Part shown: in pieces, positions 6,940-42,464 of the stretch
Position numbering within the stretch: the stretch's first letter is position 1
How the letters are laid out: the number at the start of each line of letters is the position of its first letter
Origin: Patescibacteria group bacterium
GTDB taxonomy: Bacteria > Patescibacteriota > Minisyncoccia > UBA6257 > 2-01-FULL-56-20
Reading direction: 5' to 3'
DNA: 52,106 nt
Assembly: GCA_038063055.1 (NCBI GenBank)
Contig: JBBTVY010000001.1
Span: 1 to 52,106 of the forward strand
Notes under the pieces: generated by a model
Told to the model about the DNA's origin: nothing
The model's database searches: none
Seen by the model: only the letters and a program-made list of their open reading frames with translations
Position numbers and translations under genes: made by a program

Positions 6940-6949
6940 AAAAAATGAA

Positions 6950-7067
6950 TCCCGTTAGAAGCAATAATTTCATGATTTTCAAAATATACCCCATATTTCC
7001 GATAAAAGTCGCTTTTAATAAAACCGCTGATTTACGATTGTCTTAAAGACAATCTGCTTCTAACGGG
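6950..7067. mobile_element. MITE-like element, CCCGTTAGAA/TTCTAACGGG family, copy 2
   Basis: 15-bp IR (6949-6963 and 7055-7069). ATGAA direct repeats at 6945-6949 and 7068-7072; the second is the epimerase start. Internal hairpin GATTGTCT-TAA-AGACAATC. Confidence 0.8.
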
Positions 7068-8048
7068 ATGAAAATTCTATTGACGGGAAGCGCCGGCTAT
7101 ATAGCCGGAGTTCTTCTAAAAAAGCTTCTTCGGGAACCGAATGTGAACGAAATAGTCGGCATAGACTTCCTGCCTCAGCCCGCGGAAATAAAAAGCGGGA
7201 AACTTTTTTGGATAAAACACAATCTGGCGGAACACGGCTGGGAAGAAACGGCGCGCAAGCAGGGACCGTTCGACGTTGTTGTTCATCTTGCTTTCAAGAT
7301 AAGAAGTCCTTATGGAAAAGTGGAAGAAACTGGAAAAGAAAACTTTTTGGAATGTAAAAACGTTTTTGATTTCGCATTCGAAAACAAAATTCCGAAACTT
7401 ATATATTCAAGCAGCGTGGCGGCTTACGGCGCCTCCGAAGAAAATATCGGCGTTTTTCTCAAAGAAAGCTCGCCGTTGAAAGAAAATAAATCCTCTTATG
7501 GCGCCCAGAAAAAGGCCGTCGAGGAGCTTCTTTCGACAATGATTTCAAGTAACCGTCCGGAAACAGAGGTTATCATTTTGCGGCTGGGCAGTGTCACCGG
7601 ACCTGCCGGACAGAACCTCAAAAGTAAATCAATCAGTCTAATATCTTTCATCAGAAAAATTTTGCCATTCGTTATCGAAGCCGACCCGGCCTGGGCGCGC
7701 CAGTTCGTCCACGAAGAAGACGTAGCTGATGCCATAGTCAAGTTAATGAATTCGCCCTTTAAAAAGAGCGGAAATGAAATTTACAACGTGGCCCCGCCAG
7801 AATTCCTTACCGCCCGCGATATGGCAAAGCTTCTCGGGAAAACGGTTATAAAGGTTCCAAAATTCCTCATACGGCCTCTTTTCTGGCTTGCCTGGAATCT
7901 GACGCTCGGCAGAATTCCGACCCATCCGGATTCTTCCGCCGGCTTGATTTATCCGATAAATGTCGACGGCTCAAAAATAAAATCGATAGGATTTGATTAT
8001 CGCTTTTCGCCCGCAGACGCTCTGCTCGCGAAAAAAAGTACGCCTTGA
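7068..8048 (+). CDS. NAD-dependent epimerase/dehydratase (extended SDR)
   Basis: TGSAGYIA, SSVAAYG, YGAQK. Confidence 0.9.
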   Translation: MKILLTGSAGYIAGVLLKKLLREPNVNEIVGIDFLPQPAEIKSGKLFWIKHNLAEHGWEETARKQGPFDVVVHLAFKIRSPYGKVEETGKENFLECKNVFDFAFENKIPKLIYSSSVAAYGASEENIGVFLKESSPLKENKSSYGAQKKAVEELLSTMISSNRPETEVIILRLGSVTGPAGQNLKSKSISLISFIRKILPFVIEADPAWARQFVHEEDVADAIVKLMNSPFKKSGNEIYNVAPPEFLTARDMAKLLGKTVIKVPKFLIRPLFWLAWNLTLGRIPTHPDSSAGLIYPINVDGSKIKSIGFDYRFSPADALLAKKSTP

Positions 8049-38620: not shown

Positions 38621-39976
38621 TTACTCATTTTTGAATTCCTTCAGCCGTTTTTCGAGACGCGCCGCGAGTTCCTTTTTTTCACCGTAAAGATTATTTTTTT
38701 CTTCCGGGTCATCCAGGGGAAAAAGAAGTTTCTGCGAATCGCTTATCAACTTGTGCTTTTCGGCCACTAGGCATCTGCCTATCAGCTTTATTCCGGAAAG
38801 GTCGGCTTCGTGGTCGGATATTTCGGCAATGACGTCCCTTTCTTTTCCGTCAAAAAGGTTGCCTCCCCTGAAAGATTGCGGACGCCTCGCTCCGGCGAAG
38901 CAGAGAATTGTCGGCGCAATATCCATAGAACTTCTCGGAATTTCTTCCGTTCTCGGTTTGCCGATTAATTTTTCCGGTCCGACGGCAATCAGCGGAACTT
39001 TTATGTTTTCATTGAAAAATTTTTGCATATGCTGAAATCCCCCATGGTCGTTAAATTCCTCGCCATGGTCGGCCGTTATGAAAACAACCGATTCTTCGTT
39101 CAAAACCCCTTTTGAGGAAAGATATCCGAATAAATCTTTGAGCGCTTCGTCTATGTGCCTGATTCCGTCGTCGTAAAGTCCGAGATAAAGCGGCAAAAAT
39201 AAACGGCTGACGCGCGGATATTCGCTCCAGAAATCAAAAAGATAATCGGCAAAATAAGATTTAATTTTTGATAAAAAACCGCGTCCGCGGCGCAGAAAAA
39301 GCCCGTAAGGCGCGTGGGCGTCCATGTAGTGGACCCACAAAAAAATGGGGTCTTTTATTTCGCCGTCCTGTTCCGCCAATTCCGACAACTCTTTCTTCAC
39401 CGCATTGTTCATTTCAAAAGCGGTGAAATATGCCTGAATCGGACGTCTCAAATCAACAAAGATTCTTCTTACTGTAGAAGCTATCCTTTCAAAAAAAAGG
39501 AAAATTTGTTCCAAGAATCTTGCGTACCTTGCAAGTACCCGGCGGATAATGCCTATCCTTTTTATAAGGCGCGATTGCCACGTGCCGCTCTTCATTCCCG
39601 GGCTGACGGCTGTAGAAAAATAATTAAGATGGCTGAATTTGTCCCAGCCGCGCCCATAGCCGAAATACTCCGAAAGATAGGCGTTTGAATGGAATCCCAT
39701 AGTTATGTATCCCGCGCCCTGCAGCGCCTCCTGGAGCAGAGTTCTTTGTTCGGTGATGCGCGTATAGCCGCCGAAATCCAGAGGGTAGGTGGAAGCCATT
39801 ATCCCTGCAAAACTCTGCGGAGTTGCGGCGCCGACCGAAAAACTATTCTTGAAAACAACTCCCCTTTTCGCGATTGAATCAATAAACGGGCTGGTGTTTT
39901 TTTTATAGCCGTAAACACCGAGATGGTCGGCGCGCAAAGCATCCAAAGTTATTAATATGATATTCGGCTTCTTCAT
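38621..39976 (-). CDS. Sulfatase-like alkaline-phosphatase-superfamily protein with Thr at the nucleophile position
   Basis: KPNIILITLDALRADH, ATPQSF in place of CxPSR, WVHYMDAHAPY, TADHGEEF. No signal peptide. Confidence 0.85.
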   Translation of the reverse strand: MKKPNIILITLDALRADHLGVYGYKKNTSPFIDSIAKRGVVFKNSFSVGAATPQSFAGIMASTYPLDFGGYTRITEQRTLLQEALQGAGYITMGFHSNAYLSEYFGYGRGWDKFSHLNYFSTAVSPGMKSGTWQSRLIKRIGIIRRVLARYARFLEQIFLFFERIASTVRRIFVDLRRPIQAYFTAFEMNNAVKKELSELAEQDGEIKDPIFLWVHYMDAHAPYGLFLRRGRGFLSKIKSYFADYLFDFWSEYPRVSRLFLPLYLGLYDDGIRHIDEALKDLFGYLSSKGVLNEESVVFITADHGEEFNDHGGFQHMQKFFNENIKVPLIAVGPEKLIGKPRTEEIPRSSMDIAPTILCFAGARRPQSFRGGNLFDGKERDVIAEISDHEADLSGIKLIGRCLVAEKHKLISDSQKLLFPLDDPEEKNNLYGEKKELAARLEKRLKEFKNE

Positions 39977-41217
39977 TAAATATTTTTTATCCTGCCTACG
40001 CCTATTATCTCTCCTCCCTGCTTGATTACAAATTTATTCAGGAATGTTTCTTCGGTATCCAAAAGAAGCAGAGCCGAAAGATTAAGTTTCAATCCGATTA
40101 TTTTGTTTGTCTCCACGGGGATGCTTCCTTGGTGTTCGGCTTTTGAAGAACCGCATTCAATTGTTATTTTCTCCGCAGGATTGAAATTTCTGAAAAGAAA
40201 AATTTCACTGTCTGCTTCCTTAATGGAACGCGGGGCATTTTTCTCGGGAGCAAGAATTGTCCCGCGCGATATTTCCGAACCGGCCTTAAGCGCGATCCCG
40301 GCGTTCTCGCCCTCCTTTACGGATTCCGTGTCATTGCCGGAAACGGAAAGCAAATTCAATACTGAAAATATTTTCCCTGACGGCAAAGCTACAACCGATT
40401 CTCCTTTTTTAAGCTCCCCGCTTTTGACGTTTATGGCCGCCAAAGATTCTCCGTTTCTCGGATAAATCCCGTTAGAAGCAGGGTGCCCCGAGGTGCCCGT
40501 AGCACTCTCCTGCTGTAGAGGGCGGCTTCTAACGGGATAAACATCCTGAACGATGGCGCGCATCGGAAGCGGGACGGATTTCATTTTTGCTATCGTGTCT
40601 TCAACTCTTTCAAAAATACTCATTCCTTTGAACCAGGGCATCTTCTCGGAAACTTTCGCGACATTCTCCCCTTCGCGGGCGGAAAGCGGAATGTAATAAA
40701 CGTCCTCCGGCTTGAACTTTCCCGCGAGAATTGTTTCCATTTTTTCCTTTATCTTCAGAAACTCGGACTCGTTGTAATCGAACGCGTCCATTTTATTGAC
40801 GCCGACTATCAGCTTTTTCATTCCCAAAAATTCGGCGAGCATAAGATGTCCGATGCTCATTTCGTCTATGCCTTCTTTCGCTGAAACCATAAGAATGGCC
40901 ATATCGGCCCTGGAAGCTCCGGATATCATCTGGTGCACCAATTCCGAATGCCCCGGCACGTCTATGAATATGTATAGAGCGCCTTTCTTTCCATTAACGA
41001 AAACAGATGCGGTATCGTAAGTCATTTCCTGCTCGCGCTCTTCTTTGAAGCTGTCTAAAAGATGCGCCCACTCAAAGGGCCTGCCCGCCTCGGCGTCTAT
41101 TTCTTTTGTGGTCTCCACTTTGTCGCGCGGGACCGAATTGGTGTCAAAAAGAAGCTTGCCGAGAAACGTGGATTTGCCGTGGTCTTTATGCCCGAGAACT
41201 ACGATTGATGGAGTCAT
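39976..41217 (-). CDS. cysN: Sulfate adenylyltransferase subunit 1 (GTPase), no APS kinase domain, with a 25-aa in-frame insertion
   Basis: GHKDHGKST, LLDSFKEEREQ, DVPGH, NKMD. Lies downstream of cysD. Confidence 0.88.
   Translation of the reverse strand: MTPSIVVLGHKDHGKSTFLGKLLFDTNSVPRDKVETTKEIDAEAGRPFEWAHLLDSFKEEREQEMTYDTASVFVNGKKGALYIFIDVPGHSELVHQMISGASRADMAILMVSAKEGIDEMSIGHLMLAEFLGMKKLIVGVNKMDAFDYNESEFLKIKEKMETILAGKFKPEDVYYIPLSAREGENVAKVSEKMPWFKGMSIFERVEDTIAKMKSVPLPMRAIVQDVYPVRSRPLQQESATGTSGHPASNGIYPRNGESLAAINVKSGELKKGESVVALPSGKIFSVLNLLSVSGNDTESVKEGENAGIALKAGSEISRGTILAPEKNAPRSIKEADSEIFLFRNFNPAEKITIECGSSKAEHQGSIPVETNKIIGLKLNLSALLLLDTEETFLNKFVIKQGGEIIGVGRIKNI
40467..40536. mobile_element. 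MITE-like element, CCCGTTAGAA/TTCTAACGGG family, copy 3 (in frame in cysN)
   Basis: 14-bp IR (40466-40479 and 40525-40538). ATAAA direct repeats at 40462 and 40537 are 75 bp apart; removal restores QDVYPRNG. Confidence 0.82.
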
Positions 41218-41219
41218 GC

Positions 41220-41280
41220 CAATTTCGCCTGCGAGGGCAAGGTTGTTATTTTAACCGCAGCCCGAGCAGCTGCGAAATTG
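41220..41280. repeat. 61-bp imperfect hairpin between the cysN start and the GIY-YIG cassette
   Basis: CAATTTCGC/GCGAAATTG, CTGC/GCAG, GGGC/GCCC, GGTT/AACC. Confidence 0.65.
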
Positions 41281-41283
41281 AGC

Positions 41284-41543
41284 ACCGAGCACATAAATTT
41301 ATTCCAAACTGAATTCCAGTCGTTCCTTAAGGCGACGAACTGCTTGGCCTCTCTGCTTAAGCATTCTTTCGCGATTTCTTGCATCACGTTCATTTTTGTA
41401 TGCTTCATAATAAATTAGATTTGGTTTTTTATCTTTGTGTTCCTTAAAACGCCTTTTGAGATCATTGGTATAGCCGATATAGGTCGTTCCGTTATCTTCG
41501 CGCTTTAGGACATAGACGTAATACATAAATTTATGTGCTCGGT
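41284..41543. mobile_element. GIY-YIG cassette bounded by perfect 19-bp terminal inverted repeats
   Basis: ACCGAGCACATAAATTTAT (41284-41302) and ATAAATTTATGTGCTCGGT (41525-41543). Confidence 0.75.
41299..41526 (-). CDS. Minimal GIY-YIG nuclease family protein (75 aa)
   Basis: YYVYVL..YIGYT.DLKRR..EH, YYEAY, ARNRERMLK. Confidence 0.92.
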   Translation of the reverse strand: MYYVYVLKREDNGTTYIGYTNDLKRRFKEHKDKKPNLIYYEAYKNERDARNRERMLKQRGQAVRRLKERLEFSLE

Positions 41544-41597
41544 AAGGTTTTTCTAATAAATTTTATTCGTCGTCTCTAAAATTTATTGAAAAGACCT

Positions 41598-42383
41598 TTA
41601 CATATACCCCAGCGCGCGGAGTTGCTGCATGACATATTCTTTTTCTTTGTCCTGCGCCCTGCCTCCGCGTTCCGAGTCGGTTGCTTTTTCAATCTCAGCG
41701 ATTATTTCGTCCAATGTTTTCGCTTCGGATTTCATCGCTACGGTGCATTTCGTGCATCCGAGCGAGCGGAATCTTTCGCCGTTCTTGGAAAAGTAAAGCG
41801 GATTTACGGGAAGATTTTCCGCCTTGAGATATTTCCAGACATCAATTTCCTGCCAGTGAAGAAGCGGGTGGACGCGGACGTGGTCGCTTTCCGGAAAATC
41901 GGAAAGGTAATCCCAGATTTCCGGCGCCTGGTTTTTATAGTCCCATTTGTATTCCTTGTCGCGCGGAGAGAAATATCTTTCTTTGGCGCGGATGCCATGC
42001 TCGTCCCTGCGAATGGAAACTATAAGCGCGTCTATTTTCCTCTCGTCCATCACTTTGCGGAGCGCGTCGGTCTTGTTTCCCCCGCAGCAGTCCACTCCCG
42101 AAATTTTGTCCTGCTTCACAATGCTTTTCTCGACAACCATCTCGAATCCCCATTCCTTTGAAACTTTTTCGCGGAGCGCGTAGGTCTCCTGAAAATCTAT
42201 TCCGTTGTCTATATGTATGACGGGAAAAGGAATTTGTCCGAGGAACGCTTTTCTCGCAAGTCCGAGCGTGACCGTGGAATCCTTGCCCATGCTCCATAGC
42301 ATCGCGACATTTTTGAAACGCGCTTTCGCTTCCCTGATTACCGATATGCTTTTTTCTTCAAGTTCTTTAAGGTGTTTGTCCAT
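41598..42383 (-). CDS. cysD: Sulfate adenylyltransferase subunit 2
   Basis: WSMGKDS, RRDEHGIRAKERYFSPR, RVHPLLHW, RSLGC, ERGGRAQD, LRALGYM. Start taken at MDKHL. Confidence 0.93.
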   Translation of the reverse strand: MDKHLKELEEKSISVIREAKARFKNVAMLWSMGKDSTVTLGLARKAFLGQIPFPVIHIDNGIDFQETYALREKVSKEWGFEMVVEKSIVKQDKISGVDCCGGNKTDALRKVMDERKIDALIVSIRRDEHGIRAKERYFSPRDKEYKWDYKNQAPEIWDYLSDFPESDHVRVHPLLHWQEIDVWKYLKAENLPVNPLYFSKNGERFRSLGCTKCTVAMKSEAKTLDEIIAEIEKATDSERGGRAQDKEKEYVMQQLRALGYM

Positions 42384-42390
42384 GGTTTTG

Positions 42391-42464
42391 TGGCTAATGG
42401 CTAATCGCTTATTGCTAATAACTGGCTTAAACAATTTGCCATATGCTATTTGCTATTCGCTTTT
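42391..42464. repeat. Heptamer tandem arrays (TGGCTAA / TGCTATT type)
   Basis: tggctaa tggctaa tcgctta ttgctaa ... tgccata tgctatt tgctatt cgctttt. Confidence 0.7.

Follow-up and report, generated by a model that had tools for sequence, protein, structure and literature searches.

A 260-bp unit in a Patescibacteria genome places a small GIY-YIG nuclease gene inside a widespread hairpin repeat

Introduction

What separates two normally adjacent genes, cysD and cysN, in the small genome of a Patescibacteria group bacterium? The stretch of DNA analysed here (the window: 52,106 nt, contig JBBTVY010000001.1 of assembly GCA_038063055.1) carries between its cysD-like and cysN-like genes a 260-bp unit at 41,284–41,543, in which perfect 19-nt inverted repeats (IRs) enclose a single open reading frame (ORF) for a 75-aa GIY-YIG nuclease. 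An earlier note, made from the sequence alone, had taken the unit for a minimal selfish cassette with terminal IRs and had suggested that it mobilises short palindromic inserts elsewhere. Our comparison with related genomes shows that the IRs are the stem of a widespread, mostly gene-less hairpin and are unlikely to be private transposon ends, and that the nuclease gene is a rare occupant of this hairpin. The best explanation is that the 260-bp unit represents one copy of a Patescibacteria family of selfish cassettes, whose sole gene encodes a GIY-YIG nuclease of 75–76 aa.

Results

The element between cysD and cysN

The features of the locus, in the coding orientation of the operon (minus strand), are as follows.

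41598–42434, minus strand: cysD-like upstream host gene with a PAPS_reductase domain (PAPS_reduct); the proteins of two congeners are 93–96% identical
41544–41598, minus strand: hairpin H1, which starts at the cysD stop codon, ends with AAACCTT and abuts the 5' arm; 22-nt arms, 86% complementary
41525–41543, minus strand: 5' arm of hairpin H2, ACCGAGCACATAAATTTAT; the outer 13 nt are the conserved core, and its final two bases supply the A and T of the nuclease ATG
41523–41536, no strand: 14-nt palindrome ACATAAATTTATGT over the start codon; forms a 12-nt direct repeat with 41291–41302
41299–41526, minus strand: GIY-YIG nuclease ORF, 75 aa, stop included; Pfam match, with Y5, Y16, G18, R26, H30 and E53 present
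41284–41302, minus strand: 3' arm of hairpin H2, ATAAATTTATGTGCTCGGT; includes the TAA stop
41218–41283, minus strand: structured module H3, GCTCAAT...ATTGGC, which directly adjoins the 3' arm and runs exactly up to the cysN ATG
39976–41217, minus strand: cysN-like downstream host gene, an EF-Tu-type GTPase, with its own 25-aa in-frame mini-element insertion at 40466–40538

The two arms found in the repeat search are 100% complementary over 19 nt and lie 222 nt apart. With up to three mismatches allowed, the arm sequence matches the window twice, whereas 0.02 matches were expected and none of 100 shuffles reached two; the IR score of the element is 19, compared with a best score of 10 among 200 flank shuffles. 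The layout given in the earlier note is confirmed: the nuclease TAA (complement of 41299–41301) falls within the left arm, the A and T of its ATG (complement of 41524–41526) fall within the right arm, and the right end includes the palindrome, which is perfect over its 14 nt. The outer flanks, AAACCTT and GCTCAAT in coding orientation, show no visible target duplication, and they are not duplicates of each other in any of three copies in the source genome. The nuclease is the only ORF of the element, and none of the known transposase classes (DDE, HUH, serine or tyrosine recombinase) is encoded. Judging by the sequence, loss of this ORF between the two members of the 12-nt direct repeat would leave a perfect 28-nt solo palindrome.

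The inverted repeats belong to a dispersed hairpin family

The IRs of the element are the two strands of a hairpin with a 13-bp stem, ACCGAGCACATAA / TTATGTGCTCGGT, which is scattered as a repeat through the genomes of ultra-small groundwater bacteria. A search for its 13-nt core, with at most one mismatch allowed, was positive in 138 of 301 genomes sampled from the order; some genomes reach 29 copies, compared with zero to three for the reversed pattern. Inverted core pairs fall into three spacing classes of about 15–20, 85–93 and 245–250 nt. The 40 loci that we fetched comprise solo hairpins of 28–33 nt, units of 94–106 nt, one unit of 143 nt and gene-bearing units of 258–263 nt. Most copies are solo hairpins, often forming the middle stem of a three-hairpin spacer that runs from one gene's stop codon to the next gene's start codon. 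The 143-nt copy arose by an in-frame deletion between two RRLKE-coding repeats, and the 94–106-nt class has a conserved interior of its own that is unrelated to the ORF.

The abundance of the hairpin does not follow the gene. Relatives contain up to 29–31 hairpin termini per genome, and only nine of the 301 genomes, spread over six families, encode a close homolog of the nuclease (E ≤ 1e-20). Among the 12 genomes with at least ten termini, only one (G144) has such a homolog, and another (G129, 99% complete) combines 25 termini with no homolog at E ≤ 1e-3. Empty ACCGAGCAC..GTGCTCGGT copies had been predicted and do exist, one imperfect copy in this genome and dozens in relatives; the proposed role of the nuclease as a mobiliser of the short palindromic inserts does not fit a distribution in which most hairpin-rich genomes lack it. 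Two palindrome scans of the window revealed no family of 24-nt arm-GAGC elements of the kind to which the IR had been likened. The idea of a minimal selfish cassette holds in so far as the unit is nuclease-only and behaves as inserted, selfish-looking DNA; its IRs, however, are not element-specific termini.

A frame of three abutting hairpins

A genome search detected six GIY-YIG matches in the 688-kb source genome (G000), in which the same hairpin is present at four loci. Besides the copy in the window, a paralog on contig 9 lies between infC and rpmI, is 73% identical and is bounded by ACCGAGCACATAATG/CATTATGTGCTCGGT. On contig 4 the 13-nt core bounds a 106-nt gene-less unit between genes for a membrane protein and an Hsp20-like protein, and contig 16 carries an imperfect 30-nt solo hairpin of the core upstream of a response regulator gene. 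In coding orientation, the three perfect copies share a frame consisting of H1 (AAGG...CCTT), the IR hairpin H2 and H3 (GCTCAAT...ATTGGC), whereby H1 begins at the upstream stop codon and H3 ends exactly at the downstream ATG with zero linker bases. Compensatory changes occur in the outer stems of H1 and H3 among these copies; for H3 the pairs are CAATTTCGC/GCGAAATTG, CAATTTTAC/GTAAAATTG and CAATGTTGT/ACAACATTG.

Folded as RNA, the 386-nt spacer from cysD to cysN forms three abutting stems (z = −7.2), and the 260-nt unit alone, folded as single-stranded DNA (ssDNA), reaches z = −4.2. In nine solo-hairpin frames from three other genomes, all 13 pairs of H2 are invariant, and pairing in H1 and H3 is preserved via double changes at 19 of 36 predicted pairs.

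One type of H3 (GCTCA-NNNNN-GCAGCCAATCGGGCTGC...CCCTCTTGGG-NNNNN-TGGC, followed by ATG) is conserved across genera with a covarying closing stem and is also present at other genes. It was seen at 41218–41283 of the window, at C4:47664–47730 of G000, at the L158 locus and at two loci of G144 (L100 and L108). This H3 type may be a structured leader in its own right, without a matching Rfam family: a search of the window region against Rfam at E ≤ 1 gave only two chance-level matches, and none was found at gathering score for the loci L102 and L002. We also considered whether solo hairpins sit at the apex of other hairpins and rejected this, as pairing of their flanks averaged 3.96 of 10 positions compared with 4.15 in displaced controls (n = 26).

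Insertion at varied junctions

The element is an insertion and is not fixed between cysD and cysN, as demonstrated at two junctions. cysD was found in only two of 60 relatives searched, both of them congeners, and their cysD-cysN spacers are unrelated to that of G000. The spacer of G001 measures 175 nt, and that of G002 is about 480 nt long and includes a four-helix-bundle ORF, so that all three congeners with these genes differ here. Between infC and rpmI, the spacer measures 4 nt in both congeners and 378 nt in G000, where it consists of H1, the gene-bearing H2 and H3. The insert was therefore either this whole block or a series of insertions, and not the 260 bp alone. Other relatives fill the same spacer differently, with 87 nt of heptamer-like repeats in G004 and with a ATCCCGTTAGA-type mini-element on the rpmI start codon in G003 and G018. 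Gene-bearing blocks at this junction were seen in G000, L158 and L189, with no hairpin-only intermediate. Perfect IRs exist, as expected for transposon ends; the infC-rpmI block extends past them, and the arms recur without a gene.

A scan of species-representative genomes yielded 59 loci, almost all of which bear a Patescibacteria or Parcubacteria-group label. Close relatives (at least 60% identity) could be assessed in 39 cases, and in 36 of them the flanking IRs exceed the best result from 100 shuffles. Among these 36, 20 have a 5' arm that extends to the ATG and 32 a 3' arm that overlaps the stop codon or ORF end. Among distant relatives of 81–91 aa, such IRs flank only two of 11. A co-oriented gene begins 36–149 nt downstream in 34 of the 39 close relatives and one ends upstream in 30. 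Pfam annotation of 64 flanking ORFs distinguishes more than 25 different junctions, for example rpsI>mreB, secE>nusG, nusG>rplK, pilB>pilC, parA>parB, infC>rpmI and argS>ileS-type. Most close homologs hence carry IRs, and they share no fixed site; a lack of IRs and a fixed site between cysD and cysN would have spoken against the earlier note. In the first 60 relatives, significant IRs of several stem types were present at 19 of 38 ORF matches. One close relative (L156) is IR-bounded outside the three-hairpin frame, and one relative (G268) has a separate hairpin on each side of the gene.

Several further observations concern these junctions. At L159 (element at 1201–1428), a three-hairpin block with the nuclease gene splits a group-1 glycosyltransferase gene; since the upstream ORF matches profile positions 12–102 and the downstream ORF positions 107–171, the block provides a stop and a new start. 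The infC-rpmI spacers of L040, L049, L053, L054 and L061 contain hairpins with arms of tandem 7–8-nt repeats (ACGAATA-, TTCGGAT- and CATTTCT-like), and the varied fillings of this spacer indicate a hot spot for several unrelated small elements. Four contigs labelled as archaeal or gammaproteobacterial metagenome-assembled genomes (L158, L191, L192 and L196) carry the Patescibacteria-type element; as the infC-rpmI region of L158 is bacterial and close to that of G000, these contigs are probably mis-binned. The cysD gene of congener G001 is itself interrupted (L037/L038, G001:C1:28669–29736), with matches to residues 1–201 and 199–260 about 280 nt apart in one open frame of 432 aa, which suggests another in-frame insertion. 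The spacer ORF of G002 (L036, 2277–2752) appears frameshifted; we take it to resemble the four-helix-bundle proteins of 23S rRNA intervening sequences.

The nuclease and its evolution

The encoded protein matches Pfam GIY-YIG (PF01541) with E = 9.9e-12 and 45.4 bits (cut-off 22.6) over residues 1–62. It is a single-domain protein of 75 aa without an extra DNA-binding domain, which is within the size range of the Ssn family of small GIY-YIG nucleases (about 75–100 aa). The catalytic set Y5, Y16, G18, R26, H30 and E53 is invariant in an alignment of 18 homologs. The clade of 75-aa proteins to which the one in the window belongs lacks about 9–11 residues after H30 that relatives of 84–86 aa possess. 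A confident AlphaFold model (pLDDT 86.7) shows the order strand-strand-helix-strand-long helix. By profile, the nearest solved structures are UPF0213 proteins (1zg2, E = 4e-9; 1ywl, 8e-7), followed by Slx1 (7cq2, 1e-5) and I-TevI. Foldseek gave no match in the PDB at E ≤ 0.001 (best E = 4e-3), its top ranks being GIY-YIG proteins, and an NCBIfam scan of the nuclease returned nothing above cut-off. Pfam score, catalytic residues, fold order and the top profile and fold matches together place the protein in the GIY-YIG superfamily. An exhaustive profile search retrieved 4,652 representative clusters at E ≤ 1e-3, 469 at 1e-10 and two at 1e-30, and the best 150 clusters are mostly 74–100 aa long.

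Six full copies from five genomes measure 258–263 bp, with the ATG at nt 17–19 and the stop codon in the 3' arm. Their non-synonymous divergence (pN) is 0.14–0.26 at a synonymous divergence (pS) of 0.75–1.04, which is saturated; the nuclease protein evolves under purifying selection. All six copies nevertheless have the same 13-nt core, and the inner stem covaries (ATAAATTTAT, ATAATG/CATTAT, ATAATTC/GAATTAT). In other clades stem variants are compensated on both arms (ACCCAGCAC/GTGCTGGGT and ..CACTCAA/TTGAGTG..), or a different stem, ACCCCGCCCT/AGGGCGGGGT, occupies the same H1/H3 frame. Four stem types were seen, and the variants go with different clades of the nuclease protein. Of 69 copies, 37 have a GCTCA-like 3' flank; for gene-bearing copies the figure is 18 of 25.

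The copy on contig 9 of G000 can be compared with that of L158 at the same junction. While infC differs with a pS of 0.80 (nucleotide identity 0.75) and rpmI with 0.66, the pS of the nuclease ORF is 0.43; H1 is 89% identical, and H3 is an unrelated module. This indicates that the element is younger than the divergence of its hosts and that its modules recombine. The pS contrast in this one genome pair and the patchy presence of the gene point to a history independent of the flanking host DNA, as is typical of homing genes. Decayed copies also occur: G264 has two ORFs interrupted by in-frame stops, the copy in G299 has lost its ATG, and that of L154 is frameshifted.

Sister elements on start codons and in RNase P RNA

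A second set of arms, the ATCCCGTTAGA type, bounds GIY-YIG ORFs in relatives, where the right arm includes the end of the ORF, its last codons and TGA, which overlap the host ATG. In G000 these arms bound 13 gene-less elements of 67–253 nt on host start codons, with ATGA/ATAA on both sides; they include the following.

Window: 1936–2040 and 6949–7069
G000: C2:4619–4790, C2:41053–41119, C4:40937–41062 and C5:15556–15679
G000: C8:5621–5742, C8:6536–6659, C8:18216–18468 and C11:3408–3526
G000: C13:19860–19969 and C20:4964–5088

In three relatives, L018 (G028), L025 (G060) and L027 (G050), the RNase P RNA core directly follows the right arm of the GIY-YIG ORF. The Rfam match at L025 (137 bits) aligns this arm to the 3' strand of helix P3, which places the ORF of the sister clade in the loop of P3. 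With the ORF in P3, the Rfam score of rnpB falls below threshold in two of three cases. The ORF is present in P3 of G050 and G060, and G155 (L210) has an ORF-less P3 hairpin of the same stem family.

The ATCCCGTTAGA-type elements are placed as ATGA/element/GA..., such that the right arm regenerates the host ATG; in its other two frames this arm supplies TAA or an ATGA stop/start overlap, and the left ATG copy opens a mini-ORF (MNPVR...). Two copies are nested, one of which retains a truncated nuclease N-terminus. One of the 13 elements is the insertion in cysN (40466–40538, minus strand), an in-frame mini-element of this type with ATAA on both sides. It adds 25 residues, YPVRSRPLQQESATGTSGHPASNGI, which are missing in both congeners, and resembles RPE insertions, here in domain II of the GTPase. 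Finally, an RNase P RNA-like gene with a GGAAAGTCCGGAC core lies at L102 (G144:C5:46400–47200, reverse strand, about 195–625), in the genome richest in the ACCGAGCACATAA hairpin. Stems that look like this hairpin, CGAGCACATAA...TTATGTGCTCG, occupy its P3 position and two or three more of its peripheral helices; the rnpB of G000 itself (C3:47780–48191) has none of them. Diverged RNase P RNAs with extended helices have been described in the candidate phyla radiation by Lui et al. 2021 (PMC8172020), in passages that do not mention GIY-YIG proteins.

Discussion

How the gene may spread

Together, these data suggest that the nuclease gene occupies the apical loop of a dispersed hairpin with the invariant 13-bp stem, and that the apparent terminal IRs would be the strands of this hairpin, extended as far as the start and stop codons by a few compensating pairs. 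The nuclease might recognise its cognate stem together with the oriented flanks, as Ssn nucleases do with their hairpins. Cleavage at or near gene-less copies could then be repaired by copying from a gene-bearing copy, that is, by homing or gene conversion with the arms and the conserved H1 and H3 flanks as homology, and in this way the gene would spread parasitically through the hairpin family, both inside a genome and from one genome to another. In the mRNA, the stem would be expected to bury the start codon and keep expression low. We consider the chances about even that this is such a selfish nuclease gene of the homing type, residing within the loop of its cognate hairpin, akin to the Ssn nuclease/hairpin systems. 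The broader proposal, in which the unit of 258–263 bp is self-propagating, is the smallest protein-coding mobile element known and homes, without intron or intein, into hairpin apical loops (three-hairpin spacers here, P3 and start codons in sister clades), falls somewhat short of an even chance.

A number of results weigh against homing into hairpin loops. A hairpin-only state was found at infC-rpmI in none of 30 relatives, nor at two further loci, and this clade offers no site with a gene-bearing hairpin in one genome and a solo hairpin in another. What was inserted at infC-rpmI is the whole three-hairpin block, so the gene may travel with the block instead of homing into a loop. All 13 gene-bearing copies examined share one orientation with respect to H3 and the gene downstream. 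A symmetric stem as the sole homing target does not predict this, which calls either for homology in the flanks or for selection on co-transcription. The cut of SsnA falls a few nucleotides 5' of the hairpin, not in the loop, and SsnA tolerates loop extensions, so an insertion in the loop would not obviously protect a site. The two G000 copies are only 73% identical, which speaks against recent spread within this genome. In contigs assembled from public reads (four runs from two studies), one contig covers the locus in identical form, and no contig connects cysD and cysN in a version that lacks the element. The arm joints listed belong to different copies of the family, in which 3, 36, 68 or 232 nt separate the arms. 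As contigs lose rare variants, the missing empty allele only fails to show current mobility.

Alternative explanations

If the IRs were instead the element's own ends, the unit would be an autonomous mini-transposon, excised and inserted by the nuclease and host repair, and the 94–106-nt copies and 28–33-nt solo hairpins would be internally deleted derivatives moved in trans, a GIY-YIG analogue of REPIN/RAYT or of insertion sequences (IS) with their miniature inverted-repeat transposable elements (MITEs). Such a model would account for the fact that the same arms bound units of about 260, 143, 94–106 and 30 nt, of which the 143-nt copy is demonstrably a deletion derivative, and that ATCCCGTTAGA-type arms bound ORFs in relatives as well as the 13 gene-less elements here, one with a truncated nuclease N-terminus. 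The IR-bounded copy at L156, outside the three-hairpin frame, and the patchy, burst-like copy numbers per genome would also fit. It is nevertheless hard to reconcile with the absence of a target duplication around ACCGAGCAC-type copies, with a hairpin abundance that does not follow the gene, with the conserved interior of the 94–106-nt class, which is unrelated to the ORF, and with the sister clade, in which the supposed IR is a native RNase P helix. Moreover, GIY-YIG enzymes hydrolyse DNA and form no covalent intermediate, so that strand transfer would need other factors. We therefore regard a mini-transposon as unlikely, though it is the alternative to be taken most seriously. A role for the nuclease as a domesticated host enzyme that cuts ssDNA at dispersed hairpins, for instance to restrict or shape transforming DNA or recombination, would make the position of the gene a relic of an earlier mobile phase. 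The strong purifying selection on the ORF and the oriented flanks, which resemble the oriented NTS motif, are compatible with this role, as are the function of SsnA in Neisseria and the discussion of NTS-ssnA-NTS as a domesticated IS-like unit in the text of Chenal et al. (PMC11893778). A gene that is restricted to nine of the 301 genomes but scattered over six families, decays in G264, G299 and L154, exists as two diverged copies in one 688-kb genome, occupies more than 25 junctions and is younger than its flanks at one of them, however, fits a selfish element better than a host gene, and we consider domestication improbable.

It could further be argued that nothing moves at all and that the locus is a static small gene whose 5' and 3' ends pair at the RNA level, hiding the start codon or marking a processing site between cysD and cysN, with no recognition at the DNA level. 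The three abutting stems of the spacer, the compensatory changes in H1 and H3 and the co-orientation of the ORF with the operon in most close relatives agree with a function in RNA. Structure alone would, however, permit the core to covary, whereas it is invariant in nine of nine solo frames and six of six full copies, and the insertion at two junctions, the varied sites and the younger age of the ORF and H1 relative to their flanks are at odds with a static gene. This explanation therefore appears very improbable.

Implications

The cassette is a candidate for one of the smallest protein-coding mobile elements seen. If the nuclease propagates its own gene via hairpin loops, about 260 bp would suffice for a self-propagating protein-coding element, and homing would gain a mode without intron or intein that targets secondary-structure elements of DNA or RNA. 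Selfish genes would thereby have a new way to live in minimal genomes, inside essential operons and RNA genes that stay intact. It would also explain much of the repeat and spacer architecture of Patescibacteria, in which stop-to-start gaps, start codons and RNase P helices are colonised while host genes stay intact. As each nuclease clade goes with a distinct cognate stem, the family offers a panel of candidate sequence- and structure-specific DNA cutters, the property behind the biotechnological interest in Ssn nucleases, and at 75 aa the protein is shorter than the 94-aa SsnA characterised so far. For annotation, such ORFs with their arms can interrupt RNA gene models, as with the lowered rnpB scores noted above.

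Comparison with known systems

Searches of the literature outside subscription journals brought up no account of a GIY-YIG gene within a hairpin repeat, of bacterial GIY-YIG MITEs or of an ORF in P3 of rnpB. The following systems are nonetheless similar in part. UPF0213/YhbQ and Slx1 are the nearest solved relatives by profile and lead the fold ranking, in which the Foldseek scores are weak, but none is described inside a hairpin repeat. MITEs and mosaic repeats (Correia/CREE, ERIC, BOX, RPE) are likewise short hairpin repeats co-transcribed in operons, some of them in frame within genes, as is the 25-aa insertion in cysN. They differ in that they have no autonomous 260-bp partner encoding only a nuclease. 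Correia elements also duplicate TA, whereas the ACCGAGCAC type shows no duplication.

REPIN/RAYT and IS200/IS605 systems share the layout of a small gene between inverted copies of a dispersed hairpin, and recognition of the hairpin in ssDNA is plausibly common to both. Their enzyme is an HUH (Y1) tyrosine transposase with a covalent intermediate, while the protein here is a GIY-YIG hydrolase; the unit has 260 bp compared with about 700 bp or more, and repeat abundance here is unlinked to the gene. The element is thus no REPIN/RAYT member, which would combine an HUH Y1 transposase with REP sequences, and the resemblance is one of analogous layout only.

The closest parallel is provided by the Ssn nucleases, small single-domain GIY-YIG proteins (cd10448) that, as described in the text of Chenal et al. 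2025 (Nat Commun 16:2388; PMC11893778), recognise and bind their cognate hairpin in ssDNA, with the cut placed a few nucleotides upstream of it. According to the same text, Ssn genes are flanked by the same hairpins in an IS-like layout whose mobility was not shown; the identity of the loop does not matter, the stem may be split or carry extensions at the position of the loop, and 81% of genomes with more than 200 SRM encode an Ssn nuclease (PMC11893778). Its main text and ten supplement files do not mention Patescibacteria. On this account, both systems have small single-domain GIY-YIG proteins (SsnA has 94 aa), a gene bracketed by an inverted-repeat sequence that is also dispersed as a hairpin repeat, hairpins oriented by conserved non-palindromic flanks, and nuclease/hairpin pairs that differ between lineages. 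They differ in that the gene here lies inside one hairpin, with arms 222 nt apart, and not between two complete hairpins; in the stem, which is unrelated to the Ssn stem ATTCCC-N8-GGGAAT; and in the protein, which has 75 aa and lacks about 9–11 residues after the conserved His. The hosts here are Patescibacteria, and hairpin number does not track the gene: repeat-rich Ssn genomes usually encode the nuclease, but only one of the 12 hairpin-rich genomes here does. In addition, insertion and turnover are read here from genome comparison, while nuclease activity is only predicted.

GIY-YIG homing genes, such as I-TevI in the loops of group I introns and the Seg genes of phage T4, are similar in a different respect. 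There too, a selfish nuclease ORF sits in the loop of a nucleic-acid helix, spreads into conserved targets, is patchily distributed with decayed copies and has its stop and start codons packed against the host structure. I-TevI has 245 aa; the element described here has no separate DNA-binding domain and neither intron nor intein, and its target is a multi-copy hairpin repeat or the helix of an RNA gene instead of a unique coding site.

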